Positions 16 through 22,122 are shown, counted from the stretch's first letter. The stretch is DNA of 39,003 nucleotides from a virus (IMGVR_UViG_3300012665_001407:1-39003), one strand, 5' to 3'. Notes: generated from the letters alone by a model not told the origin. Program-made: numbers and translations.

Positions 16-1029
16 TTATTGTTCTTCTTTTGTATCTGTAAATAATCGATTACCATTTATAAATAAGTTATTTCCTTTTATTTGGCTAATAACAGGTGAT
101 AGTTGACCTTCCTTTGATTGTAATCTATTTGCAATTGTGTCTGATGGTTCTAGATATAAACTATTTTTTGATATAATAGCCCACCATTGTACTTTTTTAA
201 TTTTAGCAACAATCAAATTATTAATACCACTTACAAATTCATTTACTAAATCTCCAGCATCTCCATTAGGTAAATATTTTATTATAGTATCGTACATGTT
301 TTGTAATGCTTTAATTTGAGTATCTTTTCCTATACGTAATATTCCATTTAAATCATCCTGAAATGATTGTGAGTTTAATGTTTTTAATAGGGAGTTAAGG
401 CTATTTCTACTCAGACCTGCTGTAAATTCTATACCAGTTAATACTACTAATAAATTAGTTATTTTTTTAAGTTCTTTTAATTCTTCAGCTGGTAATGAAC
501 CAAAATCTAAATTACCAATAGATGAATAGTTTTTAATACTTACTCCATCACTACCAACATCAACATCAGATTCAATTCCTGTTTCTTCAGTAGCAACACC
601 TCCTTTAGCTTTACCACCATACATTATAGCAAACCATAATTCTGATGGGTCACCATTCTGCATCTTAACAAAAGACATTATTAGCTTAAATAATTCACCT
701 TCAACATTTTGAATTGATGTCTTACCAGCTTTTAATTGTCTATTTCCTGAAGATTGGATTAATGAAAATAATTTATTTTTATCTGGTGATTTTTGAATGG
801 CATTATATAATGAATCTAAACCAGAAATAGATTGTTTTTCTGCAAGATATTTTTGTTGAATAAAAGTAGAAAATTCATCAACACTACTATCTATAGCTTC
901 ATTTAAATTAATACCATTTTCATCTAGTATTTCTTTTAATATGCGTAATTTTTTTGGATCGTTTAAATCAACGATACCATCGTGGCATCGAAATGACCAC
1001 TCATTTAATATTTCGTCTGTAACTTTCAT
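16..1029 (-). CDS. Hypothetical protein, probably head-internal, with a possible degenerate PD-(D/E)XK nuclease core. Likely start is ATG at 1029 (MKVTDEILNEW), not 1152.
   Basis: The extension to 1152 overlaps the upstream gene, whose stop ends at 1031, just before ATG 1029. N-terminus has ILNE/ILKE/LNE sites. Central SE...DVDV...VSIK resembles a nuclease D...(E/S)xK motif. Confidence 0.7.
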   Translation of the reverse strand: MKVTDEILNEWSFRCHDGIVDLNDPKKLRILKEILDENGINLNEAIDSSVDEFSTFIQQKYLAEKQSISGLDSLYNAIQKSPDKNKLFSLIQSSGNRQLKAGKTSIQNVEGELFKLIMSFVKMQNGDPSELWFAIMYGGKAKGGVATEETGIESDVDVGSDGVSIKNYSSIGNLDFGSLPAEELKELKKITNLLVVLTGIEFTAGLSRNSLNSLLKTLNSQSFQDDLNGILRIGKDTQIKALQNMYDTIIKYLPNGDAGDLVNEFVSGINNLIVAKIKKVQWWAIISKNSLYLEPSDTIANRLQSKEGQLSPVISQIKGNNLFINGNRLFTDTKEEQ

Positions 1030-1030
1030 A

Positions 1031-1555
1031 TTATGCTTCTGCTGGGATTTCTTCTTCAGGTGTTTCCTCTGCTGGTGCTCCTGCTGCTGGTTCAGCTGGT
1101 ATTTCACCTGCTGGAGCTGCGGTAGCGGCACTAAATGCTTCAGCGCCTGCATCTGGTTTTTCAGCTGCTTCTTTTTCCTCTACACCATAATTTAATTCTA
1201 ACATGTTAGAAATTGATTGTTGTGCTCTTTCTAATTCACCTAGATCTTGAACGTTATATTTTCTACCTGCTATCTTAACAGTAAACTTACCCTTACCATT
1301 ATAAATGATATTAAAGTCCTGTTCGTTAATTAATTTAGCTGAGAATGTTGTTGGTTTAGGAGCAACTAATCTAATATCAGTAACAAAACGACCAAAAGCA
1401 GGAGACATTAATTCTTCCATTACTTTTTTTAAACCAGGAAAGCGATATATTAAATACATCGCCTTCTCAGCTCGTTTTTGTTTCATTTCTTGTTCTTTAA
1501 TAGCCTTTTTAACAGCTACACGAACATATTTTTCTAATAATAATTTATTGCTCAT
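1031..1555 (-). CDS. Hypothetical phage protein with an acidic Ala/Glu/Pro-rich C-terminal tail
   Basis: 174-aa ORF in an operon. N-terminal amphipathic helix ends AIKE. Low-complexity tail. Confidence 0.75.
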
Positions 1556-1991
1556 TGTTGTTTAGTTCGTGAAAACCTTGAGCTGCTTGCTCAATATAGT
1601 TTTCTGCTTTAGCAATGTGGTCTTGAATCCAACCTGGAATATTGCGTTCTGTGTTTCCTAATTTTTCTCTTAAATCAACAATTGCTTCTGCAATTGCTTC
1701 TAGACTAGATACAGCCATTGCTACTTCGTGATCACCACCTTCTTTAATATTAGCAGATACTGCTTTACGACGTTTAGACAAATATTTATCTGTCTTATCT
1801 ACTTTACCATCGTTATTGATGTCATCATCTTCTTTACCTACTGGGTCTAATCCTTCAGCTTTTGAAGCAGCAATAGCATAAAGAGCAGGGTCGTCCTTTT
1901 TGAACTTCCCTGTCTTTTTTAATGCTTTAACTATTTTTTCTTCCTTAGCGGATAAATCGCGTTCGGTTAGTATGTCAAGTAATTTAATCAT
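1545..1991 (-). CDS. Modular putative head-internal protein: [10 protein letters not shown] tag, EF-hand/dockerin-like DxNxDGxxD loop, helical module
   Basis: Sequence shows [24 protein letters not shown] and [16 protein letters not shown]. Confidence 0.7.
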
Positions 1992-2002
1992 TGTTATTTA
2001 TA

Positions 2003-2839
2003 TTAATCGCCTGTGTATCTTCCGAATGCTGTATCGTATCCTCCACCTGGTCCGTATCTATCATTAAACGCAGCTTGTGCTTTTGCTTTTTCTTCTGGTG
2101 TTCTTGTATCAGGTTGTGGTTTAGAAGGTTCCATTGGCTTTAATGTAGCAGGTACTCCATCAATAACAATCTTTTCAGGAGTTCCAACATAATCCATAAT
2201 CTTTAAAGATTGACTACCATCAGCAGGAATTAATCTTCCTAATCCAGGTACTACCTTTCCTATTTTGATACCATCAACAGTTACTTCTTTACCTGCTTCA
2301 ACAGCAGCTCTAGCAGCTTTTAAAATAGCATTAACATCAGTACTTGAGAAAGCTGCCTCTTTTAATTCTTTACTTTTTTTTTTAGAATCGTCAGCTTTAG
2401 GCTCTTCTTTCTTTTCAGCTTTTTTAGGCTCTGCTTTTTTATCGTCTTTTTTAGCAGGAGCTTTCTTAGCGTCTTTTTTAGGAGCTTTAGGAGCTTTTTC
2501 GATTAAACCAACCATTTCTTTGATCTTTTCAGTTTCAGATGAAACTTTACCTTCAACTTCAGAAATTTGTTTGTCTAACATCTCAGACAATTTAGCATGA
2601 GCAGCTTTAATTTTTTCTAATTCAGTAACGAATTTTTGCATATGTGCATATTCAGCTACGAATTGTTGTTCACCGCCTTCAGCGATTTGTAATTGACCTA
2701 AAGATTCTTTCATATTCTTTAAACCAGCTAATTCTTTCTTAAGGTGTACTAATTTTCCACCGCTTTTTGGTAAACCGCCTTTCTCCATTGCTTCAGCAAT
2801 AGCTAATTTAACGATGTTGCGTACTTCTGTAATATTCAT
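2003..2839 (-). CDS. Coiled-coil protein with a histone H1-like Lys/Ala/Pro segment (scaffold or internal protein candidate)
   Basis: Helical heptad-rich N-half, then KAPKAPKKDAKKAPAKKDDKKAEPKKAEKK, then ELKEA before a distinct C-terminal domain. ATATTTATA motif upstream. Confidence 0.7.
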   Translation of the reverse strand: MNITEVRNIVKLAIAEAMEKGGLPKSGGKLVHLKKELAGLKNMKESLGQLQIAEGGEQQFVAEYAHMQKFVTELEKIKAAHAKLSEMLDKQISEVEGKVSSETEKIKEMVGLIEKAPKAPKKDAKKAPAKKDDKKAEPKKAEKKEEPKADDSKKKSKELKEAAFSSTDVNAILKAARAAVEAGKEVTVDGIKIGKVVPGLGRLIPADGSQSLKIMDYVGTPEKIVIDGVPATLKPMEPSKPQPDTRTPEEKAKAQAAFNDRYGPGGGYDTAFGRYTGD

Positions 2840-2857
2840 TTTTATTATGTTTATGTG

Positions 2858-2866
2858 TATAAATAT
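2858..2866 (-). promoter_or_regulatory. ATATTTATA putative late-promoter motif
   Basis: Intergenic, 18 nt before ATG 2839. Confidence 0.6.
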
Positions 2867-2886
2867 GTTAAATTGTTAATTTAATG

Positions 2887-5586
2887 CTATGATTTTTTAG
2901 TGGCTTTAGTTAAACTAGGTGTACCAATTAAATCTGTGGTAATTTTACCAGTAGCAATTGCTTTTTTAGCACTAACTTCGTCTATGTGTTTTGCTAGCAT
3001 ATCTCTTACCTCTTGTGCATGTTTTGGATTATTATTTAAATATTCACGCACAATATACGAACGATGCTCAGCCAAACCACGTTGTGTTAAAACTTGTACT
3101 AAGTCTGATGGTGAATTTAAAGGCATTGCAGCATTACCATTAGCATTACCTGTTAATATAAAGTTATAATTACCTGGTTGTACATTAATAGATGCTATGA
3201 TTTGTCCACTAGCTAATCTAATAAAGTAAATTTTACTGCTACCTATAGCTATTACTCTGCCTACAGTACCTCTATTTCCTAATTGGTTATTACGACGAGC
3301 AGCACCTCTATCGCCATTTGGGGCAACACGTGATGCATTAGTTACGTTTAATCTTCTTATAATAGATCTTGGTAAACGTAAAAATGCTGTATCTAATCCT
3401 GTTTCTTGCATTACTTCACCAACATTAATATCACCTGCGGCTGCTGGAGCTGCTGGTGTCTGTTGACGAGGAGCACCACCACCTGCTGGTCTTCCTCTTC
3501 TACCTGCTGTTGCTGCTGTTGCTGCTGGGGCTGGTAAGCCTAACATAGCAGCTGCTTGAACTGGTGAAATATTAGCTTTAACTAATTTACCTGAAGCGCT
3601 TGATACACCATAACTTTCTCTTGGGTTTTGAGTATTAACTATATATCCAGTACCTTGGTACATTACTGGTTTCATTAAATTACCTTCAACCATTGGGGGA
3701 TTAGCTTCGATCATTGCATTACCTACTCTAGCATTTCCCGTAGCTTGACCTGCTGATCTAACTACTCCAATAACATCATTATCATTAAATTTTTTATTCT
3801 GATTGGCTAAATAGGCATACCATGCTCTGTATACTGCTGGATCTGATGAATAACCTCCATTATTTGGAATTACCCATTGAGCTTCACCTTCATAGTCTCC
3901 GTATACTGCTGTTTGTTGTAAATTTAAAGAACCTCTATTTGTAGTCATTATTAAAATCTTATCGTTTTCAGTAGTAATTACAACTGCAGGATTACCTCTC
4001 CATTCAACTGTTCTTCTATCTAAAGGTATAGCTCTTAGTACTGATATGAATGATTTTCTATCTATGCTGATTGGGATTCTAGTATTATATGATAATAAAG
4101 AAAGAGCATTTTGTTGTAATCCTTCATTATTTTTAGCATCGTCAAAAGCAGATTGTACTTCTTCATTATCAAATGGTACAGGCAATATACCACCATCTTT
4201 ATCAATTTTATAAGAAGCAAATGAATTTGAATCTAATATAATTTCACCATCTTCTATTTGTTTAACTATAATAGCAGAGTTAGGATTAGTTTTAGCATCA
4301 TCAAGTAGTTTTGTAACTACATCTCTATTAATAACATCATCCACAACCAATTTCATTAAATTTTTAAATGGAATTTTGTCTAATTCAGGATAATCAAGTA
4401 AGAATCTAGATGTACGTTTATTTAATTTAACATTAGGGTAATCATCTTCTTCCGTGTATACACTTACTTTAATATTATCCCCTAATAATAATTTAACTAT
4501 AGCAGAACCATCTTTAGTAACATATATTCTATCGTCTGATTTTATATCCCATTTATTTAGAGATGTTAATAATTTTTTAACATCCCATGGAAAATAGTCT
4601 GATTTTAGATATTTTAAATCAATTTTGTCTCTTAAATTAGCTGTAATTGATTTTCTATCTTGATTAGAGAATTTATCTAGATTTTTTAATAATTCTTTTG
4701 AATCTACAAGACCCGGTGTTATTGCTACAAAGTTAGCAATTTGTGGATATTTAGGAAGATATTTCTCTATGAAAGTAGTATTATCAATATCATTAAAAAA
4801 TTGACCTCTTGATCCTCTAACTACTAAATATTGTTTTTTAGTTTCAAATGGAAAATTTGACCATTCTCTAATACCAACTGCATCGTATGCATATTTTTGA
4901 GTAAGTTTTTCTTGACTAGAGATAGGAATATACTTCATAATGCTTTTAACATTAGGAATATTACTCAACCAAGGAATTTCTCTATTAAGTTGTTCCCAAC
5001 TCATTGGTTGTGATTCGTATGGACTATTTTTTCTATTAGTATAAACGTATTTTTGATCCTCTCTTTCAACATCTCTAACCTGAATAGCAACAAAGCTTAA
5101 TTTGTTGTCATCAGACATGCTATTATTTTTAGCTAAATAAAATACCGGATATCCTCTACCACTTGAGTAACGGTAGCTACTAAATGAACCTCTAGTAATA
5201 CACCATTTTTCTCCTTGACCATATTTAATACAGTTACCTTCTTTAGAACCATTCCAAATAATATAAGGTTCTTCATGATATACTACATCAGGTGTATCGT
5301 CTTCTTTTTCAGGAACTGCTTCAGCGCCTGCTGATGATGTAACCAATTTAATTAATTTTGATAAAGTATATTTACGTAAATCTTTATCAGTTATCTTAGG
5401 TGAATTTTTTAATGCATCAAAACGTGTAATATAAGCTTTTAATTGATCATCAGTAATTTCAATACCTAAATCATCAGCTTCTTCTCTAAATTGAGCCATT
5501 AACTTTTTTAATTCGCCTTCAGAATATTCATTCAGAGGGAATAAGTTATGGACTACATGTAATATAAATTTGTCTATTGGTCTCAT
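2887..5586 (-). CDS. Large hypothetical protein (899 aa) with a YGxxxKWCIT motif and an AT-hook-like RRGRP
   Basis: Long ORF containing CIKYGQGEKWCIT, GRRGRPA inside an Ala/Pro linker, and PLNE near the N-terminus. Confidence 0.8.
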   Translation of the reverse strand: MRPIDKFILHVVHNLFPLNEYSEGELKKLMAQFREEADDLGIEITDDQLKAYITRFDALKNSPKITDKDLRKYTLSKLIKLVTSSAGAEAVPEKEDDTPDVVYHEEPYIIWNGSKEGNCIKYGQGEKWCITRGSFSSYRYSSGRGYPVFYLAKNNSMSDDNKLSFVAIQVRDVEREDQKYVYTNRKNSPYESQPMSWEQLNREIPWLSNIPNVKSIMKYIPISSQEKLTQKYAYDAVGIREWSNFPFETKKQYLVVRGSRGQFFNDIDNTTFIEKYLPKYPQIANFVAITPGLVDSKELLKNLDKFSNQDRKSITANLRDKIDLKYLKSDYFPWDVKKLLTSLNKWDIKSDDRIYVTKDGSAIVKLLLGDNIKVSVYTEEDDYPNVKLNKRTSRFLLDYPELDKIPFKNLMKLVVDDVINRDVVTKLLDDAKTNPNSAIIVKQIEDGEIILDSNSFASYKIDKDGGILPVPFDNEEVQSAFDDAKNNEGLQQNALSLLSYNTRIPISIDRKSFISVLRAIPLDRRTVEWRGNPAVVITTENDKILIMTTNRGSLNLQQTAVYGDYEGEAQWVIPNNGGYSSDPAVYRAWYAYLANQNKKFNDNDVIGVVRSAGQATGNARVGNAMIEANPPMVEGNLMKPVMYQGTGYIVNTQNPRESYGVSSASGKLVKANISPVQAAAMLGLPAPAATAATAGRRGRPAGGGAPRQQTPAAPAAAGDINVGEVMQETGLDTAFLRLPRSIIRRLNVTNASRVAPNGDRGAARRNNQLGNRGTVGRVIAIGSSKIYFIRLASGQIIASINVQPGNYNFILTGNANGNAAMPLNSPSDLVQVLTQRGLAEHRSYIVREYLNNNPKHAQEVRDMLAKHIDEVSAKKAIATGKITTDLIGTPSLTKATKKS

Positions 5587-5595
5587 AATGTATTT

Positions 5596-6210
5596 TTACC
5601 ACTTTCTACAAGACCAGTATCTAGCTTTAGTACGTGGTCCTGGGTTAGCACAATTGTGTCTTGCTCTAAAGGCTTTACGTCTTACTGGGTTATTCTTTTT
5701 GATATTCATTCCCTTAGCGCCAAAGTTAACTTTTACAACTTTACCGGTTTTAGGATTCTTAACGTATACTTTAAATTTCTTACTGTCACCGCGCATTGGT
5801 TTACCTAATGGTACTGTACGGCCTTGATATTTTGCTTCTAATAAACAATCACAATCAGCTTCATTTAGTTGTTGTTGATATTCACGCATGAATTGAACGA
5901 ATTCTTTTATATCGTCTTCGTTTTCAACGTCATATTCTTCTATACTATCTTTATAACGGTAGCTATTATCATAATCACATTTATGACAAATATATGGATC
6001 ACGTCCACCATCTTCTAATTCCCATCTCCATCCACACTTTTCACACTCAATAGTATCGTCATCTTCACCAATGAAAAAAGATTCATTTTTAACAGGAACA
6101 CAGTTATTTACACGTTTACCTGTTTTAGAAGATATTTTAGTTTTTGGATTACCTTGTTTGTAACCATCCCAACATTCCATTTCAGATAATATATCTAATA
6201 GTTTTATCAT
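5596..6210 (-). CDS. Modular putative head-internal protein: [10 protein letters not shown] tag, CWxGY...NCVP module, CxxC-CxxC Zn ribbon, basic RARHNC...RYWSC module
   Basis: Motifs are read directly from the translation. The CWxGY and RARHNC modules resemble short modules I recall from T4-like phage proteins. Confidence 0.75.
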   Translation of the reverse strand: MIKLLDILSEMECWDGYKQGNPKTKISSKTGKRVNNCVPVKNESFFIGEDDDTIECEKCGWRWELEDGGRDPYICHKCDYDNSYRYKDSIEEYDVENEDDIKEFVQFMREYQQQLNEADCDCLLEAKYQGRTVPLGKPMRGDSKKFKVYVKNPKTGKVVKVNFGAKGMNIKKNNPVRRKAFRARHNCANPGPRTKARYWSCRKW

Positions 6211-6521: not shown

Positions 6522-7102
6522 TAGGAAGCAATGTGGGCCTTTAATTCTTGTATGTGTTCCTGTATATCTTGAGATATTTTCTTAGTATCTAACCCATTAC
6601 CACCCCATTTTTCAATATCGCCCTGTTCCGTTACGAAACTTTCATTACTTTCTAATGCTATTTCTAATAAAGCATCTTCTAAGTCTTTAATATATGTTTT
6701 AATACCTCGATTAGTTATATTACGAACATACTCTTCATATTTACCTGTGCGCTTTAATTCAGTCTCCATTGTAATTACACAATCAAAACACATACTGTGT
6801 ATAGGCCACATTTTTTTATTTAAAGTATCGTTTTTTAATGCTTTACCACAACTAGGACAAGCTAAAGGTAACATTATAGATTCCTTTAATTTATCAAAAC
6901 GAGTAACAGTTTGCTTAATACCATTTTTTAGAGTCCAATTTTTACCACCTTCTTCCCAAACATCACCTTCTTTATGTTCTACTTGAGCTTTAGTATAACC
7001 AACTTGAGTTGTTGTTTTTGCATTATAATCTTTTGTAATAATGTTACGCATACGTTGAACGTCGCGTCCTTTAAACTCACGTTGTAGTTTTGATTCTTCC
7101 AT
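6521..7102 (-). CDS. Hypothetical Zn-binding protein
   Basis: CPSC...H..CFDC cysteine pattern. TAATG overlap with the upstream gene. Confidence 0.7.
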   Translation of the reverse strand: MEESKLQREFKGRDVQRMRNIITKDYNAKTTTQVGYTKAQVEHKEGDVWEEGGKNWTLKNGIKQTVTRFDKLKESIMLPLACPSCGKALKNDTLNKKMWPIHSMCFDCVITMETELKRTGKYEEYVRNITNRGIKTYIKDLEDALLEIALESNESFVTEQGDIEKWGGNGLDTKKISQDIQEHIQELKAHIAS

Positions 7103-7569
7103 TATAACCCTAATTTTTTAAGTTGACTGATTGTATCAGCAGCTGAAGTATGAAATATACCAACACCACCAGCGGCATTCCATTCATCAATAGTTTGCTT
7201 CATATCATCAATTAATATGCGGTTTGGTCCAGCAAATAATTTTTTATTAGCTCTATTATAGAAATATGCTTTTTTAAAACTGTTTTGTAAGTTTACTTTC
7301 AACCAAGCTTCCTTACCTATTTTAGATGAAGGATCCTGAGATGGGGCTGATAGAATGTTTGGTTTGTATTTTTTAATATAACGCCACAACTCTTGTCCAT
7401 CAGGCATCCATTTTAGGTTAGCCCAAAACGATGCGCCTTCTTCACTTATGGGTTCCCAAAAAGAAGAATCTCCTTTAACAAATTGCTTAGTGTGAACTCC
7501 TGTTAAATCGTAATAACCTTTTTCAAAATCGACAAGGACTCCATCCATGTCACAGTAAATAATATACAT
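7102..7569 (-). CDS. HAD-superfamily 5'(3')-deoxyribonucleotidase (NT5C-like)
   Basis: Motif I DMDGVLVDF, motif II ILSAP, conserved Lys, motif IV LIDD, and W..AGG.GI. Confidence 0.85.
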   Translation of the reverse strand: MYIIYCDMDGVLVDFEKGYYDLTGVHTKQFVKGDSSFWEPISEEGASFWANLKWMPDGQELWRYIKKYKPNILSAPSQDPSSKIGKEAWLKVNLQNSFKKAYFYNRANKKLFAGPNRILIDDMKQTIDEWNAAGGVGIFHTSAADTISQLKKLGL

Positions 7570-7571
7570 AA

Positions 7572-8945
7572 CTATTGATAAATTTCTTCGTGTTGTTTGC
7601 CGAAGTCTCTTAACAAGACTCCTGCTTTAGCGTTTGCTTCATTTTCAATGTCGCTTCCGGTTTTGCCACTTTCGTAGCTTATTCTTCCATCCTCATCTTG
7701 CTTGCGGTGAACTAATTCATGTGCTAATGTTCTTAAAATATCAGCCATATTTCTATTCGCGCAATACACCCATATCTTATTATCATTTGGACTAAAATAA
7801 CCAAAACTCCTCATTTCCTTCGCCTTATTTGTGTCGTATGACAAGGATAAGTTACGGGGAGGATTTTGAATTTCCAAGTTTTTAATTGCAAATTTAATAA
7901 ATTCACCTATAGTCGCTGTTTCACTTTCATTTAATTTACCTTCTTTTAATGGAAATGGTTTAGGACCATCTAGATCCAACACACCCATTAATACCTTAGG
8001 TATTTTACCTAATGCTTTATAGAACATTAAACGTGTATTACCAGCAACTAAGTAGTATTTATCTTGACCATAATTTAATACCATTGGTGGACTAACAACA
8101 GCATCCTCATTTTTAATAGCATCTAATGTTGGTTTCCAATTTTTACCATATTCTTTAGCTAATTTAATAGCATCATCTAATGAATTAATTTCATATGAAT
8201 CGCTATTTTCTAATTTAGACCAAATATCATCGCTTAATACAACCATACTACCTGCTGTAAAAGCATATCTAACATCTGGAATAGGAATATTAAGGTCTTG
8301 AGCTGTACGTTCAATTTCACTTTCTTCACTCATAACATAGTCAGCAAATGTATCATCTTGGTTTTGATATTTTCTTTCTTTTAAATCAACATCTACAGGT
8401 GTAGCATCGGTATTTGCTTTAACTCTTTTACTTAATGCTTGTAAGAAATCTACTATATTAATTCCATCTGGAAGATATTGTTTAATAGCGTCTTCATTAT
8501 TAGTTTGTAAAGCAACACGTAATTCAGATGCGTTTGTACCTTCAATATTACCTGCATTAAACACTTCTGTATTTGGAAGTTTTTGAGCACTATTAAAACG
8601 TGAATCTTCATCTTTACCTGCAGCTAAAATAAATTTAGTATCAGGATTATCTTTTGCTACTCTATATGCTTCTTGAACTGGACTTCCAGCTGCAACTCTA
8701 ACTTCAACAGAACCATCTAATAATGTCTTATATAATTCCCATATAGCAAGACTTTCATCTACAGTTACACCTTCACGTGTTTTAGGAGAAATTAATACAA
8801 CTACTTGATCTGCTTTTTCTAATAATTTTTTAACCACAGCAAAGTGACCTTTATGAGGTGGTTTAAAAGCACCAGGGAATAAAGCGATAGTTGATTGGTC
8901 TTCTGCTTCTAATAGTTGTTGTGCTATATATTGTCCTAAGTTCAT
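7572..8945 (-). CDS. Three-domain fusion: HxGH cytidylyltransferase-like nucleotidyltransferase, ParB/Srx-like domain, HExxH zinc metallopeptidase-like domain
   Basis: LFPGAFKPPHKGH and NASELR (HIGH-family NTase); PPMVL...YYLVAGNTRL (ParB-like GxxR); RTLAHELVH...ENEAN (zincin). Confidence 0.8.
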   Translation of the reverse strand: MNLGQYIAQQLLEAEDQSTIALFPGAFKPPHKGHFAVVKKLLEKADQVVVLISPKTREGVTVDESLAIWELYKTLLDGSVEVRVAAGSPVQEAYRVAKDNPDTKFILAAGKDEDSRFNSAQKLPNTEVFNAGNIEGTNASELRVALQTNNEDAIKQYLPDGINIVDFLQALSKRVKANTDATPVDVDLKERKYQNQDDTFADYVMSEESEIERTAQDLNIPIPDVRYAFTAGSMVVLSDDIWSKLENSDSYEINSLDDAIKLAKEYGKNWKPTLDAIKNEDAVVSPPMVLNYGQDKYYLVAGNTRLMFYKALGKIPKVLMGVLDLDGPKPFPLKEGKLNESETATIGEFIKFAIKNLEIQNPPRNLSLSYDTNKAKEMRSFGYFSPNDNKIWVYCANRNMADILRTLAHELVHRKQDEDGRISYESGKTGSDIENEANAKAGVLLRDFGKQHEEIYQ

Positions 8946-9700
8946 TATTTTAAAAATGTATTTATTTTAGATTTAGCATCATCCATAGATGTAAATTCTG
9001 GTGTTCTTTTAACTAATGTTTGTATTGCCGTGTTTAAGTCTAATATTTCTTTGTCACGTTTAGCTTTTTCATCTGGTGTATAAACTTTACCACTACCTTT
9101 AACTGTTTTAAAGAATCTCTCTCTAGCAACAGCAGGATCATATTCTGCTTTACCTTCAGGATCATTATTAATTAATACAAATTTATCACCAAATGCTTGT
9201 TTGTAATTGTCTATATTAGCATTTACACCAGCCCATGTTTTAACAACAATAGCAGGTGCTAATGCACGATCACGACCAGCATTACGTTCTAATGATGTAT
9301 AAGGTGAAACCCAAATCATGACCATCATTGTATCGTAGCCTAATTCTTCTAATTCAGCTTTTTTCTTCAATAACGGTTTACTAGCAGCGCCAGTACCATC
9401 TATGATAATATCTTTTTTAGCCCCTGATAATTCTGCGTATTTTTCTTTAGTTGCCTTTTGAGCTTGACCCATTAATTTACCTGCTTGAGACAATTGATCT
9501 TGATCGAAATCTGCGATTTTCATACCTAATCCTGCTGCTTTCAACAATTCTTCATAGGTGTCATCGACATTAATTACAGTCAAATTTTTCGGTATTATCT
9601 GCGCAGATACAAATGTTTTACCAGAACCAGCGGGACCAGCCATGAATATGGCTTTTGGTTTGGATTGTGCTTCTTTAAGTAAATCTAATAATTTGATCAT
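8945..9700 (-). CDS. P-loop kinase of the zeta-toxin/AAA_33 (polynucleotide kinase-like) class. Likely start is ATG at 9700 (MIKLLDLLKEA).
   Basis: Walker A GPAGSGKT, INVDD, IIIDGTG and lid RNAGRDR. The extension to 9739 runs through a hairpin and promoter motif. Confidence 0.8.
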   Translation of the reverse strand: MIKLLDLLKEAQSKPKAIFMAGPAGSGKTFVSAQIIPKNLTVINVDDTYEELLKAAGLGMKIADFDQDQLSQAGKLMGQAQKATKEKYAELSGAKKDIIIDGTGAASKPLLKKKAELEELGYDTMMVMIWVSPYTSLERNAGRDRALAPAIVVKTWAGVNANIDNYKQAFGDKFVLINNDPEGKAEYDPAVARERFFKTVKGSGKVYTPDEKAKRDKEILDLNTAIQTLVKRTPEFTSMDDAKSKINTFLK

Positions 9701-9705
9701 ACGTG

Positions 9706-9743
9706 AATATAAATAGGTGACCTGGACGAGCCAAGCCACCTAT
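9706..9743 (-). terminator. Putative intrinsic terminator of the primase-exonuclease unit
   Basis: Minus strand reads ATAGGTGGCTTGG-CTCGT-CCAGGTCACCTAT, a 13-bp stem with two G-U pairs that form only in this orientation, followed by a U-rich tail. Confidence 0.65.
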
Positions 9744-12300: not shown

Positions 12301-13116
12301 TTAAGGACATGATGAAGTATTAATTACATTACCTGAATTATCTATTTGGTAACTAGTTGCCCCTGGTCCTTGATAGTACCATAAACTACCTCCAGCAAAT
12401 GGGAAGTCACATCCTGCTCCACCTGAGTAAATTATTGATGGATTTAAAGCATTATCTGTTGTAAATAGAGTTAAATCACCGGCAACACTACATGCACTGG
12501 CCGTTCCCCCATTATATAAGTAAATGTTTTGACAAGTTACTTCAGGGGTATTTGTTGGAGTATTTGTAGGTGTATTTGTTGGAGTATCAGTAGGGGTTGC
12601 AGTTGGGGTATTAGTTGGTGTTGGATCTAATGGAGTGCTTGTAGGAGTATTAGTTGGGGTATTTGTAGGTGTTGGATCTAATGATGTGTTAGTTGGTGTA
12701 TTAGTAGGCGTATTAGTTGGTGTTTGAGTAGGTGTATTGGTAGATGTATTAGTTGGGGTTTGAGTTGGAGTATTAGTAGCTGTGTTACTATTTGTTGGTG
12801 TATTTGTTGGTGTGTTTGTTGGAGTATTAGTTGGAGTATTTGTTGGTGTTTGTGTTGGTGTGTTTGTAGGTGTTGGTGGTGGTGGAGCATTTAAAATAAT
12901 AGTTTTAGCACTGCAACAACAATCAGCACTTTCATTTACAATTACTACTTGACCAACACTTGTATCAACGCGATATATTTTACCTGTAATTAAACTAGCT
13001 AAAGAAATATTAGATTCAAGCAAATTATCTTCCGATATAGATGTTTTGTAAACACTATACGGACCTGTTGCTGTTGTGCTCGAGGATAAATTTACTGTTA
13101 TTTGCTTATTAGCCAT
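12301..13116 (-). CDS. TPTN-repeat fibre/decoration-like protein
   Basis: N-domain ending CCC, a long TPTN stalk, and a Cys-bounded C-terminal module. Confidence 0.75.
12545..12886 (-). repeat. Degenerate 12-bp tandem repeat encoding TPTN
   Basis: Plus strand (gtattNgtNggN)n with third-position variation. Confidence 0.9.
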
Positions 13117-13120
13117 TTAT

Positions 13121-13129
13121 TATAAATAT
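13121..13129 (-). promoter_or_regulatory. ATATTTATA putative late-promoter motif
   Basis: 4 nt before ATG 13116. Confidence 0.6.
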
Positions 13130-13132
13130 CTT

Positions 13133-13894
13133 TTAATTAATGTATACTGATTGACCTGCTGAATTAGAACCAAAGATTCCTCTTAATGTTACTGTATATG
13201 TACCTGGTGCTACTATTTGATTATCACAAGTAGGAGCTCCTGCTGTACTATCACTAGCAGAGAATGCATAGTTTCCAGGACCACTAACTTCAATTAAGTC
13301 ACAAGTTACTTGAACTAGTGCTGAAGTACCGGCTGGTGCTGCACATACTGATATATTTTGAGATCCACCTGATACTACCAATGTTCCTGTTATAATAGTT
13401 GTGCCACTAGTTCCTGTAGGATAACCATAAACGGTTCCACTAGTACTATTACCCAACCAAGTTGAAGTACCACTACTCAATGCCCAATCACTAAATACTT
13501 TGGTAGTATCTGGTGTGTTAGTTGGTGTTGCAGCTAATGGGGTATTAGTTGGTGTAGCAGCTAACGGAGTATTTGTTGGTGTGTTTGATGGGGTATTTGT
13601 TGGAGTGTTAGTTGGAGTTTGGGTTGGAGTGTTTGTTGGTGTTGCTGTTGGTGTTGCTGTTGGAGTAGGAAAAACATAAGATTGAGCACTATCATTACAA
13701 CAACAATCGGGGTCATCATTTTTAACTATTACAGAAGAATGTCCTGCAGTATCAACAAGATAACCAGTTCCAGTTAAAGTCCCTTGAGACACACCACTAG
13801 CTATTAAATTACCAGAAGCTATAGAATCAAAATAGAGACTATAAGTGCTGTTTATAGCATTAAGGGTTGATATGCGTACGTAAATGTTTGCCAT
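13133..13894 (-). CDS. TPTN-repeat fibre/decoration-like protein, paralog of 12301..13116
   Basis: Similar N-domain (YSLY..SI...NLI.S..S...L..G....VDT.....VIV.N...DCCC), stalk at about 13511-13669, beta-rich C-domain. Confidence 0.75.
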   Translation of the reverse strand: MANIYVRISTLNAINSTYSLYFDSIASGNLIASGVSQGTLTGTGYLVDTAGHSSVIVKNDDPDCCCNDSAQSYVFPTPTATPTATPTNTPTQTPTNTPTNTPSNTPTNTPLAATPTNTPLAATPTNTPDTTKVFSDWALSSGTSTWLGNSTSGTVYGYPTGTSGTTIITGTLVVSGGSQNISVCAAPAGTSALVQVTCDLIEVSGPGNYAFSASDSTAGAPTCDNQIVAPGTYTVTLRGIFGSNSAGQSVYIN

Positions 13895-13895
13895 C

Positions 13896-14126
13896 TTATA
13901 AAGAAGATAATATTTCTGTTTTAATAGTATTAAACTCAGCTTCAGTCATAGATTCCCATTTATCGGTATAGGCACTATCTATTACTACTTTATCGTAAAA
14001 TGATTGCTTATTAAATAAAGCAACACTTTTTGCTGTTAATGAATTGCTTAATTCCATTACTTGATTAGTTTCACTATCTAGCATTCTATAAGCATCATTT
14101 ACAAAGCATCTAAAATATGTTTTCAT
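13896..14126 (-). CDS. Small hypothetical protein within the fibre cassette (chaperone candidate)
   Basis: 76-aa ORF filling the gap, tightly spaced to the next gene. Confidence 0.6.
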   Translation of the reverse strand: MKTYFRCFVNDAYRMLDSETNQVMELSNSLTAKSVALFNKQSFYDKVVIDSAYTDKWESMTEAEFNTIKTEILSSL

Positions 14127-14146
14127 ATATATAATTTATATTGTTT

Positions 14147-17100
14147 TTATGGACAAACCACATTTGAGTTATCAGCAGATCCAAATATACTACCATTTGC
14201 ACCAAATATAATATTAAAGCAATTAGCTGTAGCATCTCCAAATTCACTACATACATATTCGCTACATAAAGTTCCTGTTGCTAAGTCTTCCATGTTTATT
14301 TGTGCTGTTGCAGCATTAAATCCTGAAGATGCTTGTACTTCTACTGATATGGTATCTGAAGCGGTTGTTGTAAATAATCCACTTGCTCCGTTAAGGTAAG
14401 CATAAACAATAGTTTCTCCATTTTTAATAATAGACATATTACCAGATCCACCAAATTGACTAAAGTTCCAATTTACTGTAAATTCACTTGTTGTATTAGT
14501 TGGTGTTGCTGCTATTGGAGTGTTTGTTGGTGTTGCTGGAGGAGTACTAGTTGGTGTTACTGTTGGTGTTGGAGTTGGTGTAGGACAAGCTTGACAAGAA
14601 CCTGCAGCTGTCATATAGGTTGCTCCAGATCCTGGATGGTAGAATGGTTTATAATATCCACCATAGCATAATACAAATGTTGTTTGAGCTAATCCTGAGA
14701 AGCTACCATAAATAGTAGATGATGAACATAAGTCAGAACTACTTAATTGGATTCCATAAGTAGTACCATTTCCACAATCAGTAGGACTGCTTGGAGCACT
14801 TGTTCTTAATATTGCATTAACATAAGGTAATGGAGTTGATGTTGGAGTATTTTCAGGAGTTGAAGTAGGAGTATTTGTAGGTGTTGCTGTTGGTGTTGCA
14901 GCTAACGGAGTAGCTGTAGGAGTAGATGTTGGTGTGGATGTTCTAGTATTAGTAGGTGTTGATGTTGGAGTTGGGCAAAGAGCACTATTATATGTAGTAC
15001 CATCATTTCCCATCTTAAATACATTAGTACCATCTGAATACCATTTATCCTCTCCATCATATACACTAAATGGATAAGCATTACTAGTATAGAAAGTTAT
15101 ACCATCAAAGTATTGATCATTATAAGAATATACAATATTGTTTTTAATAGCTGAACAAGCAGCTGATAATCCACTTCTACCTGGAGATAAAGTAAATTGG
15201 TATGAAGGTGCTAATGGAGTTGATGTAGGTGTAGATGTTGCAGTATTGGTTGGAGTGTTAGTTGGTGTATTAGTAGGTGTTTGTGTTGGAGTATTTGTTG
15301 GAGTAGCTGTTGGTGTTGCTGTTGGAGTAGGAGTAGGTACATTACAATTAGTAAATGTTCCGGCTACATATAATATTTTATTATTTGGATTAGGTGAACT
15401 AATAGAATCTATTGTTACATTAGTAACATTAGTATCTTTAGTAATAGATGAAGTTGGAAAAGCAACATAAGTAATACCTTCAGCTGATGCTGTAGTAGGA
15501 ATAGTTGCTAATAAACTTCCACCATTATATGCTTTTAAAGTTAAATTAACAGGATAATATAATGAAGATGAAGCAGATCCAGTAGCACCACTTATATTAA
15601 CTCCATAAGGTTGACCTACAGAATAAGTTGTATAACAAACTTCTGTTAAATTAATTGATAATGTAGTTGGAGTACTATAAGCAAATATATATCCTTCTTC
15701 AAAACTATTAAAAGCATAATAAAAACCTGGTGTTGCTTCAGAATAACTTGCAGTACTTGAAACACTATCGTAAGTATAAAATGAAGAAGTATTTGGTGTT
15801 AAAAATCCTGATTTTAAAGAAGCAGTAGTATATAAACTATTAGGATTAGTTGTATTTTTTGTTATATAAGGAATATCACTACTTAATTCATTATAATTAT
15901 TTTCAAACCAAAACCAATCACTAGTATATCCTTGATTTGATGTTTGAACAGGATACGTAGCACTATTAACAAGAGAAGTTACTGTTGTAGCTCCTGATGA
16001 AGCCATTGATAAAATATCTGTTACAGCACCATTTACAGTTTTATAAAACGTTCTATAATATGAAGCAGAAGAATAAGTTTCTGAAGTTACAGCATAATAT
16101 CCATTAAATGTTTTTTGACATCCTGATTGATCATAATATAGATATTTTCCTACTGTCAAACCAGCATTATTAGTATTATCAAAGAAATAACTTGCTGTGT
16201 TTGGATTATTTTCTATTTTAATTTCATGGGTAAAATAAGCTCCAAATCCATCAACTCCTTCTTTAAGAGTACTATAATTTGAACCAGTATAAGATGATGT
16301 TAAACTATTTAAATAAGATGTTGCTAAATTATTTGCTGTTGATTGTGAATCTGTAGATGTAAAATATCCTTCTGGTAATGTAATTGTAACTGTTGAAGGA
16401 GTTTCTAATAAATCTCCACAAGGAATTTGTGGTACAAACGATACCGATTGAGCTGCATTTTTATAAGTTCCTGTTACTGTATCTGGTTTACCAGAACAAT
16501 AAGGTAATGCAAGTAATTTAGAAAAGTTAGAAATTACAGACCCAGAGTCTGGTAGATCTATTATAGTAGAATATGCTAATCCTTTTTTTAGAGGATTTTG
16601 ACTTATTAAAGCATTTGTTGAATACGATAATTCTTTATTTGATATTGTAGCAGAAGATGACTGATCGTAAAAATATATACCATCACAATAATATTCTGAT
16701 TTATATGTTGTTAATCCAGTATTAGTATATATTCTAGTTCCATTATTTAAATAAGGAGTATTTGCATATCTATACTTAAAAGTGAGTGAAGGTTCTTGAA
16801 TAACAATTTTAGTAGGTTGTAGTAACAAATATATTATATATAATGCAGCTAAAACCATAAAAATAGTAACTAAACTAGCTGCAAAAGGCCCTAATATACC
16901 TGCTAATCCACCACCACCGGCAGATACAGTTGATGTTGAATTAATCCAAACATCAACACGAGCTAAAAGAGTTAATAACTTATTAGCAAGCATTTTGCTT
17001 GTAATTTCATAAGCCCATATAGAATCTAAAAAGGCTAGCCCAATTGATGCAGCAACAATAGCAGCTTCAGTATAATCAAATTTTAATCTTCTATCATATC

Positions 17101-18127
17101 CAGAAATAAATGATTTTGATAATTTTTGTAAAGCATGTTGGAATCCAGGAATAGTATGAACTGCTCTATTATTAAAGTCAAATTGAGTAAAAAAATCAGC
17201 AGCTGATTGAGCTGTTGGTGCTGCTCCTAGGTAATATAGATATGAAGAAGGTTGAGTTAAAGACGATGCTAATATAGTTTGTCTTAATTTGCCTACATTG
17301 TTTATAGTAGGAAAAACAAAATTTTCTGTGGTAAAACCATTAGTATCTATACCTTTCCAAGATTTTGGTCCTTCTATTCTATTATATACTCTAGTTTTTC
17401 CTAGAGCCCATTTTTTTATTACTTCAATATATTCTTTTTCTCCAAAAGATCTTTCTAAATTATCTCCTACTTTATAAACATATGACCCAGTAGAATAATA
17501 ATAAGGATAAGCGGGTTGAGTAAAGTTAGGATTAGCATATAACTCTGTATTATTAGTCCATGAATTTATAGGATCATAAGAATATAAATAAGTATAAAGT
17601 GATGGACTGTTTGCTGCATCGTATGGAGAATATACATGTAGTCCCATTAAATATGAATATAAAGGACCTACATCTGTACAATTATATTGAATATTAACTG
17701 TTATATTAGAAGGAAGAGTACCTTTTCTACCAACACATAATGTTATTGGTAATAATGAAGATTTTGCAGTTGCATTTACTATAGCGTATACTCTTGTAGT
17801 AACACCTGATGTTAATTTAATATAGTCTCCTGGAAGTTGGGGTTGGAATAATCCACTTAATGTTGTCGCGTATGATATAGGCATATCGGGACCTGCAAAA
17901 GATACACCCACTACATCTGCGCTTCCTGTAATTGTATAACTAATATCAAAAGTTACGTATCCATAATTAGTATTACCTAAATTTAATTGTCTAGTTTTAT
18001 TTGCCCATTTATAGTTAGAAGAATTATTTATATTAAGTGCTGCAAGAGCATCCTGTCCCCCAATAGGTCCGCTAGAGGTAAAATCACCAGATGTGAAAAC
18101 TATATTTGTTGAATTATTAAGTGGCAT
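14147..18127 (-). CDS. Large multidomain fibre/adhesin-like virion protein with two hydrophobic helices, a DUF5977-like repeat and three PT/TPTN linkers
   Basis: 1326 aa, rich in S/T/Y/N. Hydrophobic segments near 16820-17066. YKNAAQS..F....C....[20 protein letters not shown]. Linkers near 15213-15338, 14830-14975 and 14490-14586. Confidence 0.75.
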
Positions 18128-18135
18128 ATACTATT

Positions 18136-18144
18136 TATAAATAT
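18136..18144 (-). promoter_or_regulatory. ATATTTATA putative late-promoter motif
   Basis: 8 nt before ATG 18127. Confidence 0.6.
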
Positions 18145-18145
18145 T

Positions 18146-20785
18146 TTAACATGTTAATATTGTGTCATCACAAAATCCAATTAATGTTTTAGTTTGTGTT
18201 GGTCCTGCTGATACTTGATAAATTGGATTATTAATTCCTTTTGTGTTTGATGTTAATTTATAGTATCCTGCTGGAATTAGTGTTGTTAAAGATGAGTTAC
18301 TGTACCAATTGATGTTTGTATAACTAGTAGAGCCTGTTAATAAATCACCATTCATATATACAGTTGATGTTACGGCACAAGCATCACAAGCTGTTGTTCC
18401 TATTGGATCTGAATTATAGTAACAGAATGAAGATGAAACTGAATTTTTATCAAGTAAAGCATAAATTACACTTCCTGTACCTGTAAATGGAACTTGAATA
18501 ATTGATTCTGTAGAGAATATACCAGCTGTGCTACCTGAACTATAAGACCATCCTTTAAATGTAGATCCATTAGTTCCTGTACAACCCATATTAATTACAC
18601 TACCAAATGAACCTGTGTATGTAAATGGTGAATTAACATTTATTGCTGGGTTTGGTAAAACATAAATATATTGAGTAAGTTGACCAGTAGCACCATTACG
18701 TAATGGACTATTTATAAATGTTATTTCGTTTGTAATACAATTATAAAGTGGTTGCCATGAAACTACAGTACCAGTACTATCAGCAATTGCTGGATAGTAA
18801 ACTTGATCTGGTGTTACGCTTGCTGTATAAAGTGATGTGATTCCTGTATAAGTCCAAATTGGATTTCCATTAGCATCTTGAGTTACTGATGCTGAATATG
18901 GAGCAATACCACCTGTCAAGTTAAAATATACTTTATCTTGAGCACAATCTGCGTATACATTATTTAAGAATAAACTTCCTGTAGGGAATAAACTTCTAAA
19001 TGAATCTCCACCTCCACTTCCTCCACTACATTCAGATAAAGAAACACTTCCTGAATTAGTTGTTACCCAAATATCTCCAATTCCATTTCCTGTTAAACAA
19101 GGATTTGTACATCCACAAGTAGCGTTCCATAATTCAATACTACTATATCCTGTTGGAATAATAGTATCAAAAGGTGTTCCATCGCTTAATGAACCTGATA
19201 CTCTAACATTAGTAGCAGCTGGACTATCTAAGGTGATAGTAAGTATTTGATTAGATTCATATTCATTAGGTTGTGAGAAACATTCAGCTATAGTATATGT
19301 AGATAAAGATATATTATAACAGCTATTTTGTGGTAAAGTAGATCCAGAAACCACATATGTTTTATTAGTACCGTATGTTACAGGATGGCTAAAGTTTTGA
19401 CTACCACTACCACTATAATAATAATTTGAACTACTATATATTAAGCTACCATTTTCATATATTGATAATAAAGCACTTGCTGTTGTATAAGGTCCCCAGA
19501 AATTAGAAGGTGTTGCTTCAGCAGCTTCAAGAGTAACATTATTACTTGTTCCTGCAGGTACACTAGCTGAGAAATCACCTGAGAAATAATATGCTGTTCC
19601 ATTTACTGTTAGATTAGCATCTAAGAATGTTGTTGGAGAAGCATTATATTCTTCTAAGTGGATGTATACTGTAGATGCTATAGCTGTATTTGTTGGAGTA
19701 TTTGTAGGGGTATTTGTTGGAGTAGCTGTAGGGGTATTAGTATTAGTAGCTGTAGCAGTTGGAGTGTTTGTTGGTGTATTTGTAGCTGTATTACTGTTTG
19801 TTGGAGTATTTGTTGGAGTAGATGTTGGAGTTTGAGTTGGAGTTGCTGTTGGTGTTGGACATAAGAAACTTTGTGATACATAAGCTGTACCAGTACCCCA
19901 AACATCATTCTCAGATCCAATTAATAATATATTACTTGAACCAGCATCTTTAATAGCATAAACTGGTGTTCCATAAGATGCGGTTAGAGTATTGTAAGTA
20001 TAAACACTACCTGATGTATTAGAGAATAATACTTCTCCTACAGTTAAAGGTATAGTAGCATCATATACAGCTATAGCGTCACCTCCTCCACCACATAATG
20101 TGTTATAGTTGTTACTAAATCTATAGTTACTTCCACTTAATGGAGGTGTTGCTGTAGGGGTATTTGTTGGAGTGTTTGTTGGTGTTTGAGTAGGGGTATT
20201 AGTAGGCGTATTAGTAGGCGTATTAGTCGCTGTACTTGAATTAGTAGGGGTATTAGTAGGTGTGTTAGTAGCAGTATTTGTAGGTGTGTTGGTAGCAGTA
20301 CTTGTAGGTGTATTTGTAGGTGTATTTGTTGCTGTGTTACTATTTGTTGGAGTATTTGTAGGTGTTTGAGTTGGAGTGTTTGTTGCAGTATTTGTAGGAG
20401 TATTTGTTGGTGTTTGTGTTGGGGTGTTTGTAGCAGTATTTGAATTTGTTGGGGTATTTGTTGGAGTGTTAGTTGGTGTTTGTGTAGGTGTATTTGTTGG
20501 AGTTGCAGTAGGGGTTGCAGTTGGTGTTACTGAAGGTGGATTGTAAACTTTAACTCCACAATTATTAATACAAGTTACTATTATTTGAGATACTTCACGA
20601 GGTGTTGAAATAGCAACAAAACCACCACTTACAAAAGAAGATAAAGGTAAATTAACAGCAGGATCTCCAGAAGGGTATAGACTAGCTGTATGTGGGGATG
20701 TAGGATCTCCATCAATACTATAGCTAATGTCAAAAGGACCTGCTGAAGTTCCGGTTGGGATTGTTATTTTAAAATATCTTGCCAT
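18146..20785 (-). CDS. Multidomain TPTN-repeat fibre/adhesin-like protein
   Basis: 879 aa. N-domain related to those of 12301 and 13133 (AGPFDISY). Two stalks. LTGGIAPYS (SprB-like turn), FKGWS (InlB B-repeat-like) and many Cys pairs. Confidence 0.75.
19685..20530 (-). repeat. Two blocks of TPTN-encoding degenerate tandem repeats (about 19685-19860 and 20142-20530)
   Basis: Visible 12-bp periodicity with occasional TNSNTA interruptions. Confidence 0.9.
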
Positions 20786-20792
20786 TATTACT

Positions 20793-20801
20793 TATAAATA
20801 T
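20793..20801 (-). promoter_or_regulatory. ATATTTATA putative late-promoter motif
   Basis: 7 nt before ATG 20785. Confidence 0.6.
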
Positions 20802-20820
20802 TTTTATACCATTTATTTTA

Positions 20821-22122
20821 TTAAGGATAGAATTCTTCAACTCCTATATCAAAAAATGGTGTTGCTGTTGGTGTGTTGGTAGCTGTATTAGTTGGAGTAT
20901 TAGTAGGTGTTGCTGTTGGAGTTTGTGTTGGAGTATTTGTAGCAGTATTTGAGTTGGTTGGAGTATTTGTAGGTGTATTTGTTCTAGTATTACTGTTTGT
21001 TGGAGTATTAGTTGGTGTTTGAGTTGGAGTATTTGTAGTGGTATTAGTAGGTGTATTAGTAGGCGTATTAGTAGCTGTTCTACTGTTAGTAGGTGTATTA
21101 GTTGGTGTTGCCGTATTTGTATTTGTAGGAGTATTTGTTGGAGTACTTGTTGGAGTAGATGTTAGAGTTGCTGTTGGAGTAGCTCCTGGAGATGAACCTA
21201 TTATAATAGTAAAGTTACAGTCTATACTTTGAGAAGTTGCAGTTGCTGTAAAGTCGCAATCTACATTCTTGTTTAAGGTAATAACGATTTTAGCTTTATT
21301 ACTATAAACATCACCGCAACCACTAGTTATTGTTGAACCTATACTATAATAAGTTGTATAAGTACCAGGTGTTGTAGTTGTTAATATAATTCCATCTGTA
21401 TTTCCATCTTGAGAAATATAAGGACTTCCTGATAGTATTAATTTAGTAAAATCAATAGCCCCATCTCTTCCATCTATATAGCTTGATATACTGTTTGTTG
21501 TATTGACATTAGTATAATTGAAAGAAGCAAATTTAGCTAATGGAGGAAGAGGAAATATTGATTGAGATGCTTGGTTAGTTATAATAGCTAAACCATGAGC
21601 ATAAAATATATTTCCAATATGTGTTGAACTGTAATTATATAAGTTACCATATCCGTCATCTGTAATACTATAAGCAGATGAGGTTAAAACAAAGGTATTA
21701 GGTAATATTTTATTACCATAAAGATCTTGATTGATAGCTAATATTCTAATACCATCTAAAGCCCCAGTAGGAAAATTTTTAATTAACCTAGCATTATCAT
21801 TGTATATAAAATAAGATGCTGTTGGGCGTTGCTGTGAAGCTGATTCGTAGAACAGAGAACTAGCTAGCGAAGACGTATCTAAGCTAGCTGAATATGATTG
21901 GTAGAAAAGATGGTTTATTTGGTTATAAACTAATCTTTCATATTGATTTTCAGTAATAGGATCTGCATCAAGGGAAAAACTCCCCGTTACATTAGTTCCT
22001 TTATAAAGTGTAAAATATGTTGATGATGTCGGATACGAGCATTGGGTTATATTCCACTGCTTGTTAGCGGCATACGGTACAACCGTAACGTCTGATTTGC
22101 TTAGTTTTTTGAACGCCGACAT
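20821..22122 (-). CDS. Tail/baseplate structural protein N-domain fused to a C-terminal TPTN stalk
   Basis: [10 protein letters not shown]...ITDDGYGNL...[13 protein letters not shown] resembles the middle of 22126..23115. Repeats at about 20857-21183. Confidence 0.75.

Follow-up and report, generated by a model that had tools for sequence, protein, structure and literature searches.

Head-protease motifs between shuffled enzyme modules in a putative capsid-cargo polyprotein of an uncultured T4-like phage

The gene at 7572-8945 and its three domains

The window analyzed here is a 39,003-base stretch of viral DNA (IMGVR_UViG_3300012665_001407) whose genes include those for baseplate, endolysin, primase and exonuclease. 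Among cultured phages the Flavobacterium immuto phages, which have a T4-like gp20, a gp21-type protease and gp23, are the closest to it, and we therefore infer a Bacteroidota host. Fourteen of the 38 window genes match a 41-kb immuto stretch, the block from the primase onward being in the same order, and immuto gave the best match both for a structural gene of the window (67%) and for the capsid protein of G001 (62%), the closest protease-bearing relative. Public sequencing runs sharing 24-35% of the sampled words were mostly lake or freshwater metagenomes. In three DNA runs relatives covered the window across all 30 bins, the joints listed there being of low support and mapping no module boundaries, and an RNA run gave scattered short pieces only, which have no bearing on expression.

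The feature at 7572-8945 is real and non-random. Of 7995 candidates scored, 1421 were homologues of comparable length at E<=0.001, and PADLOC gave no match for the 457-aa protein. From the N to the C terminus the reading frame contains a 13-residue leader, a HIGH nucleotidyltransferase (NTase or NT module), a ParB/sulfiredoxin (Srx)-fold domain (PB module) and an HExxH zincin (ZN module):

7572-8945, minus strand: whole gene (P0001), 457 aa, 51.2-kDa precursor
8907-8945, minus strand: leader of 13 residues ending in LLE13 (8907-8915), motif in 72 of 73 aligned homologues
8376-8906, minus strand: predicted product 1, HIGH-superfamily nucleotidyltransferase, residues 14-190, 19.3 kDa, HKGH31-34 at 8844-8855
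8355-8426, minus strand: linker 1, residues 174-197, predicted unstructured, candidate cut after LKE190 (8376-8384)
7941-8375, minus strand: predicted product 2, ParB/sulfiredoxin-fold domain, residues 191-335, 16.5 kDa, GNTR302-305 at 8031-8042
7926-7976, minus strand: linker 2, residues 324-340, candidate cuts LKE335 (7941-7949) and LNE340 (7926-7934)
7575-7925, minus strand: predicted product 3, zincin-like metallopeptidase, residues 341-457, 13.4 kDa, HELVH409-413 at 7707-7721
7632-7646, minus strand: E434-N-E436-A-N of product 3

The reading frame and motif positions reported in a first-pass annotation were borne out, with LLE13, HKGH, LKE190, GNTR, LKE335, LNE340 and HELVH all in place, and structure matches upheld the three folds that it had assigned (NTase at residues 17-175, a ParB/Srx-fold middle domain and a zincin at residues 336-450). 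An AlphaFold2 model based on an alignment of 73 sequences (mean pLDDT 79.9, pTM 0.40) showed three confident domains, and pLDDT was below 50 at residues 174-197 and 327-333 only, i.e. in the two linkers. The domains did not form a compact model, in keeping with the earlier proposal that they are released as separate enzymes.

The NTase domain matched Pfam PF01467 (E 4.8e-5) and PHROG 395 (E 7.4e-10), and TIGR00125 scored over its cut-off. Residues 17-175 aligned with the HIGH nucleotidyltransferase 3h05 (VIA Z 12.9, rmsd 2.9, 147 aligned), NMN/NaMN and phosphopantetheine adenylyltransferases being tied as structural matches (Z 12.9-12.3), and the features of the HIGH superfamily, a Rossmann-like fold with HxGH, are present. 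The zincin matched PHROG 87 (E 9.8e-5) and IrrE/M78-like viral clusters; residues 336-450 aligned with YbeY 1oz9 (VIA Z 9.0, rmsd 3.0, 104 aligned), followed by SPRTN (8.3) and Wss1 (8.1). The elements of the MPTase core, namely three strands, an N-terminal helix, the HExxH helix and a Glu in the next helix, were all found in the model (helix 340-357; strands 365-369, 382-385 and 390-394; helix 400-418 with HELVH; helix 432-449 with E434/E436). HxGH is kept in 252/252 NT copies of the family and HExxH in 321/321 ZN copies, suggesting that the NTase and the zincin are likely active. We read the NTase as presumably an adenylyltransferase that uses ATP and acts on a small nucleotide-like substrate, with NMN-type specificity a tentative choice, a little short of even odds. 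For the zincin, cleavage of a host or co-injected protein is slightly favored, the substrate being presumed.

The NTase scored below the curated cut-offs for NMNAT proper (NadM, NadR or NadD) and PPAT (CoaD), the best scores being at most 30 bits against cut-offs of 103-449. A NAPRTase/NadV gene was detected in none of the five related genomes, four of which are complete (control positive in 8/14), the window's own genome being a fragment. Since no NMNAT or PPAT model reached its cut-off and NAPRTase was found in none of the five relatives, NAD salvage is possible and not favored as a full pathway; the earlier suggestion that the protein alters NAD pools is weakened by the NAPRTase result.

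The middle domain folded alone with pLDDT 88.7. The nine best VIA matches were all ParB/Srx-fold chains with modest Z scores, led by Osa (Z 6.8, rmsd 2.9, 85 aligned) and Srx (Z 6.7), and all Foldseek matches shown were likewise ParB/Srx chains (best E 4.5e-3). The Gly-x-x-Arg motif of the ParB/Srx active site is intact as GNTR302-305. In a comparison bearing on the DdrB-like ParB family, a Pfam search listed no ParB-type family for 26 middle-domain members at E<=1; a PDB sequence search with the domain returned designed-repeat artefacts only, and cultured phages gave no match at E<=1. No family was assigned from its sequence; the ParB/Srx assignment is structural, based on the consistency of the hits to the model and on GNTR in the expected place. 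The module has 630 relatives at E<=0.001, and among the best 150 many are stand-alone proteins of 130-160 aa. G[NH]xR is present in 100/107 distant relatives against 103/235 copies of the lineage itself, some of which have internal deletions, and its loss in 132/235 copies indicates that PB is an accessory module. The domain probably acts on a nucleoside triphosphate, by hydrolysis or phosphate transfer, the substrate again being presumed, and is dispensable. All three activity assignments are weaker than the claim of processing made below. With its 630 representatives the module makes up a wide unnamed phage family (P0396-P0502) of mostly stand-alone proteins, in which G-N-T-R is near-invariant.

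The joint motif, the leader and the head protease

The T4 protease gp21 cuts after L/I-x-E (PMC9026906), and the three unrelated enzyme folds are joined by predicted flexible linkers that bear this motif. E190 is present in 73/73 aligned homologues and did not change once on the tree of 73 sequences, where the 24 linker columns averaged 9.5 changes, linker 1 varying in length from 11 to 47 aa across 24 loci. Its codon, GAA in 23 of these loci and GAG in one, is uninformative alone. In linker 2 LKE335 is kept in 71/73 and LNE340 in 63/73 homologues; E13, E335 and E340 showed 1, 2 and 5 changes, respectively, on the same tree.

Junctions were compared across the family using the 25 residues before each domain's first structured residue, windows more than 60% alike being removed. 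[LIVM]-x-E was found in 145 of 153 non-redundant internal windows against 74.4 by composition shuffling (NT 14/14, PB 45/47 and ZN 86/92; shuffled 9.8, 20.8 and 43.8), the windows being related by descent and p-values, none of them exact, overstating their independence. The strict form [LI]-x-E gave 14, 37 and 83, respectively, against 8.8, 15.3 and 34.5. Windows in domain interiors held the motif in 29% (NT), 6% (PB) and 13% (ZN) of cases, and the primase linker of the same phages, used as a control, showed no excess (16/25 against 14.8 shuffled). In a domain-blind test on 145 non-redundant proteins 383 of 537 BLAST breakpoints had a motif no more than 10 aa away, compared with 165.7 +/- 10.7 for random positions, a result that is supportive only, since an alignment can run on into a motif that both sequences share.

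At 215 junction sites P3 was L (61%), I (20%) or V (13%), P2 was mostly polar (N, K, Q) and P1' was mostly S, N or G. A motif this short is present in about half of shuffled linkers, and the 457-aa protein has ten [LIVMF]-x-E motifs, those ending at E43, E70, E92 and E348 lying in predicted helices. These helix motifs are conserved too (55/73, 54/73, 73/73 and 68/73), indicating that the motif alone marks no cut site, and that its position in an unstructured linker does.

The 13-residue leader, by analogy with T4 head proteins, is likely a capsid-targeting propeptide. It is portable, heading PB-first (P0377, P0379, P0168), ZN-first (P0299, P0300) and other (P0179) proteins. N-terminal windows carried the motif in 12/12 (NT) and 13/13 (PB) cases, counts that left out leaderless proteins (window <10 residues) and matches starting more than 15 profile positions in, and [LI]-x-E fell within residues 2-22 in 36 of 62 stand-alone short PB proteins against 21.0 shuffled. 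Many relatives have no N-terminal leader, including NTase-first proteins in L031, L032 and L045-L066 and long forms of the P0196-P0241 type, and some leaderless relatives hold a leader-like stretch internally. Another portable leader, which contains Trp-Trp and ends in LNE or LHE (L017:3351-5600, L031:9998-11170, P0364, P0385-P0392), was seen at N-termini and inside chains, including those of proteins without an N-terminal leader; it may be an internal targeting signal.

No protease gene lies on the 39-kb contig, and the protease is deduced from relatives: PF03420, the gp21-type family, scored over its cut-off in 5/5 related genomes and 0/14 controls, which agrees with the annotation's view of the linker motif as a putative head-protease site. 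The five proteases have GELDHP, SSRG and WD motifs (His, Ser, Asp) and hydrophobic-x-Glu near both ends. G001 shares 31 of the 38 window genes at 78% median identity; its major capsid protein has a leader ending in LLE8 and its scaffold is motif-rich. A search from the last ORF of the window for closer relatives reaching the protease gene gave one short locus only.

Our preferred reading, with a probability of about 0.68, is that the 457-aa protein is loaded into the capsid and split there into three enzymes by the prohead protease, its packaging, cutting and substrates being presumed. Points against this reading are the shortness of the motif and its conservation within helices, the many relatives that have no N-terminal leader, the loss of the ParB motif in over half of the family copies, and the propeptide-only cuts mapped in SPN3US (below). 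The protein would be synthesized late and its leader would then bind the prohead core, like T4 internal proteins; a gp21-type protease would cut after E13, E190, E335 and E340 to give products of about 19, 16.5 and 13 kDa, and these would enter the host together with the ejected DNA and act early. A single leader and a single short joint would allow cargo modules to be freely added or dropped.

Alternatively, the zincin and not the head protease could free the modules, whether ahead of packaging, inside the head or once injected. Its structure conforms to the MPTase core, it serves as the family hub, with 326/352 proteins carrying it, and such a role was proposed by Iyer et al. (PMC5512222). 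However, the joint motif is that of T4 gp21 and is found also on the capsid-protein leader, the scaffold and the protease ends, and zincin-free proteins (PB polyproteins in L045-L066 and kinase-HAD fusions) retain it. These observations make self-processing decidedly unlikely.

Module shuffling among relatives and neighbouring genes

The survey covered 78 IMG/VR loci together with longer and shorter homologues, giving 352 distinct proteins, some of them contig fragments. The architectures were NT-PB-ZN (190), NT-ZN (57), ZN (47), PB-ZN (30) and PB (20), with NT only (5), ZN-PB (2) and NT-PB (1) being rarer. The three modules were thus found deleted, moved, fused or joined with others, while the junctions kept the motif, as expected if the gene encodes a polyprotein of the kind first proposed. 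Chains with at least two biochemically unrelated domains in variable architecture correspond to the definition of polyvalent proteins. Among 31 proteins scanned, added modules included Pol-beta NTases, a HAD nucleotidase, a PNK phosphatase, DUF5661 and DUF6934.

The joint presence of the NTase and the zincin in 247/352 members (NT-PB-ZN or NT-ZN) would be compatible with a single three-domain enzyme whose domains cooperate, the motifs being due to chance or structure. This is extremely unlikely, given a model with pTM 0.40 and predicted unstructured linkers, the occurrence of each domain alone or with other partners, and a motif excess over both the shuffles and the primase control.

Tandem Pol-beta-like genes occur in L011, L013, L014, L020, L068 and L079:18254-21887, the second being fused ahead of the NTase. 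The Pol-beta-NTase fusions have no N-terminal leader and keep the NTase leader internally between two motifs; lack of an N-terminal leader is common to Pol-beta-first fusions, immuto gp088 included. Five loci (L043, L060, L072, L075, L076) have an inserted module that matches phrog_23027 and has a conserved His-Phe-Phe-Asp-Arg, and which may resemble an RNase fold. Two long members (P0202, P0219) have precomputed intein matches (PF14890, PF07591) inside the polyprotein.

The joint motifs could also be scars of fusion between modules that were once separate leader-bearing cargo genes, in which case the chain would be packaged after loss of its leader and stay mostly whole or be partly cut. Leaders of this kind are found on stand-alone PB and ZN genes (as in the short PB forms counted above), the NTase leader is visibly retained inside Pol-beta fusions, and both T4 Alt and N4 vRNAP reach the host as large chains (PMC5694885, PMC5512222). 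On the other hand, E190 is invariant while the linker around it varies in length and drifts in sequence, a second site immediately precedes the internal leader of the Pol-beta fusions, and gp21 cuts exposed loops (PMC12991175). Gln replaces the Glu at the C-terminal end of the zincin in terminal copies only (11/29, scattered over the tree, against 0/54 fused copies); under stricter deduplication the contrast of Glu with any other residue was gone (11/20 fused, 6/11 terminal, p=1.0), and the Gln pattern alone was left. On balance fusion scars are an unlikely explanation, and cutting at the joints is retained as the preferred one.

The gene lies among others that bear related leaders or modules:

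8945-9739, minus strand: upstream coupled ORF (likely start ATG 9700), P-loop kinase (Zeta_toxin/AAA_33/PNK-like) with its own leader ending in LKE
7102-7569, minus strand: downstream leaderless HAD 5'(3')-deoxyribonucleotidase (PHROG 2643, E 5e-29)
5596-6210, minus strand: leader-bearing gene, domain found in 27 family proteins
2887-5586, minus strand: leader-bearing gene, 899 aa, no family match, domain found in 42 family proteins

The kinase is likely co-packaged cargo. The HAD domain occurs inside 17 family proteins, and the motif precedes the fused HAD in 8/8 non-redundant forms against 4.0 shuffled. Kinase and HAD are fused through an LNE or LAE joint in L049 and L055, a layout like that of polynucleotide kinase-phosphatase, and the flanking kinase and HAD phosphatase resemble the end-healing pairs of jumbo phages (PMC7824862). 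The NTase, ParB/Srx and zincin domains, together with the kinase, the HAD phosphatase and the Pol-beta NTases of relatives, would form an injected kit for handling nucleotides and nucleic-acid ends.

The N-terminal 280 residues of the 2887-5586 protein form a module seen in 42 polyproteins directly after an LKE or LNE joint. Nearly all members of a six-gene block at 16-6210 (minus strand) have a leader containing [LI]-x-E, and the block likely encodes head cargo or core proteins. The tail genes at 12301-32314 are without an [LI]-x-E leader; several at 12301-22122 (minus strand) are tail-fibre-like, with long Thr-Pro-Thr-Asn repeats.

It is very unlikely that the protein is not virion cargo and acts in the infected cell, whole or cut late by free prohead protease. 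Leaderless relatives exist, the adjoining HAD gene is leaderless here, and gp21 can cut non-head proteins in cells (PMC12991175), but the leader of the window's copy is conserved and portable, the gene lies in a block of mostly leader-bearing genes, and distant relatives of the NTase are found in virion proteomes (PMC10665884, PMC9602691).

Comparison with known systems

In its working the gene product resembles, by analogy, both T4 head cargo and a polyvalent protein. With T4 head cargo (IPI-III, Alt, CTS, gp21; PMC9026906, PMC5694885) it shares a short N-terminal leader ending in L/I-x-E, the motif on capsid protein, scaffold and protease (here of relatives) and, as predicted, enzyme cargo, a PF03420 protease being encoded in the related genomes. 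The cuts described in T4 remove terminal propeptides or shred scaffolds (PMC9026906, PMC5694885), Alt being cut at both ends (PMC5694885), whereas here they would fall at sites that separate folded enzyme domains, with several mature enzymes arising from one precursor, and relatives shuffle the modules. A cut within an internal disordered loop of a non-head protein has been reported for gp21 (PMC12991175). In SPN3US most head proteins (42) are described as uncut, and all mapped cuts remove propeptides (PMC10052503).

The first-pass annotation had found the architecture unfamiliar from characterized phages. Its type is not unknown: polyvalent proteins with a zincin MPTase hub and ParB domains were described by Iyer et al. 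in 2017, who proposed the MPTase as the releasing unit (PMC5512222), and the cultured Flavobacterium phage immuto has a relative with NTase and zincin modules. Like the present protein, polyvalent proteins combine unrelated domains in one chain around a zincin hub with ParB/Srx and Pol-beta NTase partners, and their injection and processing into units were proposed (PMC5512222), as was a comparison with RNA-virus polyproteins (PMC5512222). They differ in that release was attributed to the embedded MPTase (PMC5512222), whereas here the joints carry the head-protease motif, and in that no HIGH NTase, cyanophage or Flavobacterium phage example was found in the text passages on them, although the supplementary architectures may include the family (PMC5512222). 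The combination of head-protease sites with shuffled enzyme modules appears new, its parts (T4 targeting, gp21 cutting and the polyvalent proteins of Iyer et al.) being known. In the full-text literature searched, which covered few subscription papers, no report was found in which a head protease divides a single phage protein into a set of enzymes.

Cytidyltransferase/NMNAT-like proteins were found in cyanophage virion proteomes, co-purification being possible according to the authors (PMC10665884, PMC9602691). S-CREM2 ORF154 and S-SCSM1 ORF91 are, like the present domain, HIGH NTases of T4-like phages in virion preparations, and differ in that the accounts of these virions report no processing (PMC10665884, PMC9602691). 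In cyanophage S-SRM01 gp258 is a cytidyltransferase with a leader ending in ITE, and a stand-alone zincin homologue lies just upstream (L080:3914-5867). The cyanophage NTase is remotely related (23% identity over 182 aa, E 3e-4), its zincin is a separate gene and there is no ParB module. Phage NAD salvage by NadV with NadM or NadR (PMC9503650, PMC7824862) involves the same HIGH adenylyltransferase fold, and the adjacent P-loop kinase recalls the NadR layout, but the present gene has no Nudix fusion, and the NMNAT/PPAT equivalog scores and the NAPRTase search given above also set it apart.

It is somewhat more likely than not that a large lineage of uncultured T4-like aquatic phages has true polyproteins, in which a leader, sometimes internal, loads swappable cassettes of up to ~2,200 residues and the head-maturation protease, like that of an RNA virus, frees each for injection. 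If so, the textbook capsid-maturation protease would double as a polyprotein processor, and the question of how polyvalent proteins separate would be answered for this lineage by the head protease instead of an embedded zincin. The three-residue joint would be both the cut site and the point of module gain or loss, and the motif would read out hundreds of unrecognized injected enzyme families, providing a rule for splitting thousands of 'cytidyltransferase-like' or 'hypothetical' phage proteins into real units and allowing a list of what abundant lake phages inject. For T4-style protein delivery it would also suggest that several cargoes could be loaded by means of a single tag.

The cultured relative makes this reading directly testable. 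A literature search found no characterization or proteomics report on gp088 of vB_FspM_immuto_2-6A (NC_055915.1), a 907-aa protein annotated as an NMN adenylyltransferase. It has N-terminal Pol-beta-like and other modules and, unlike the window's protein, is without a ParB module and an N-terminal leader. The gene order (primase, exonuclease, gp088, HAD nucleotidase) is alike, the NTase is 37% and the zincin 27% identical, and motifs are present at its joints (LAE286, VKE496 and MAE702).
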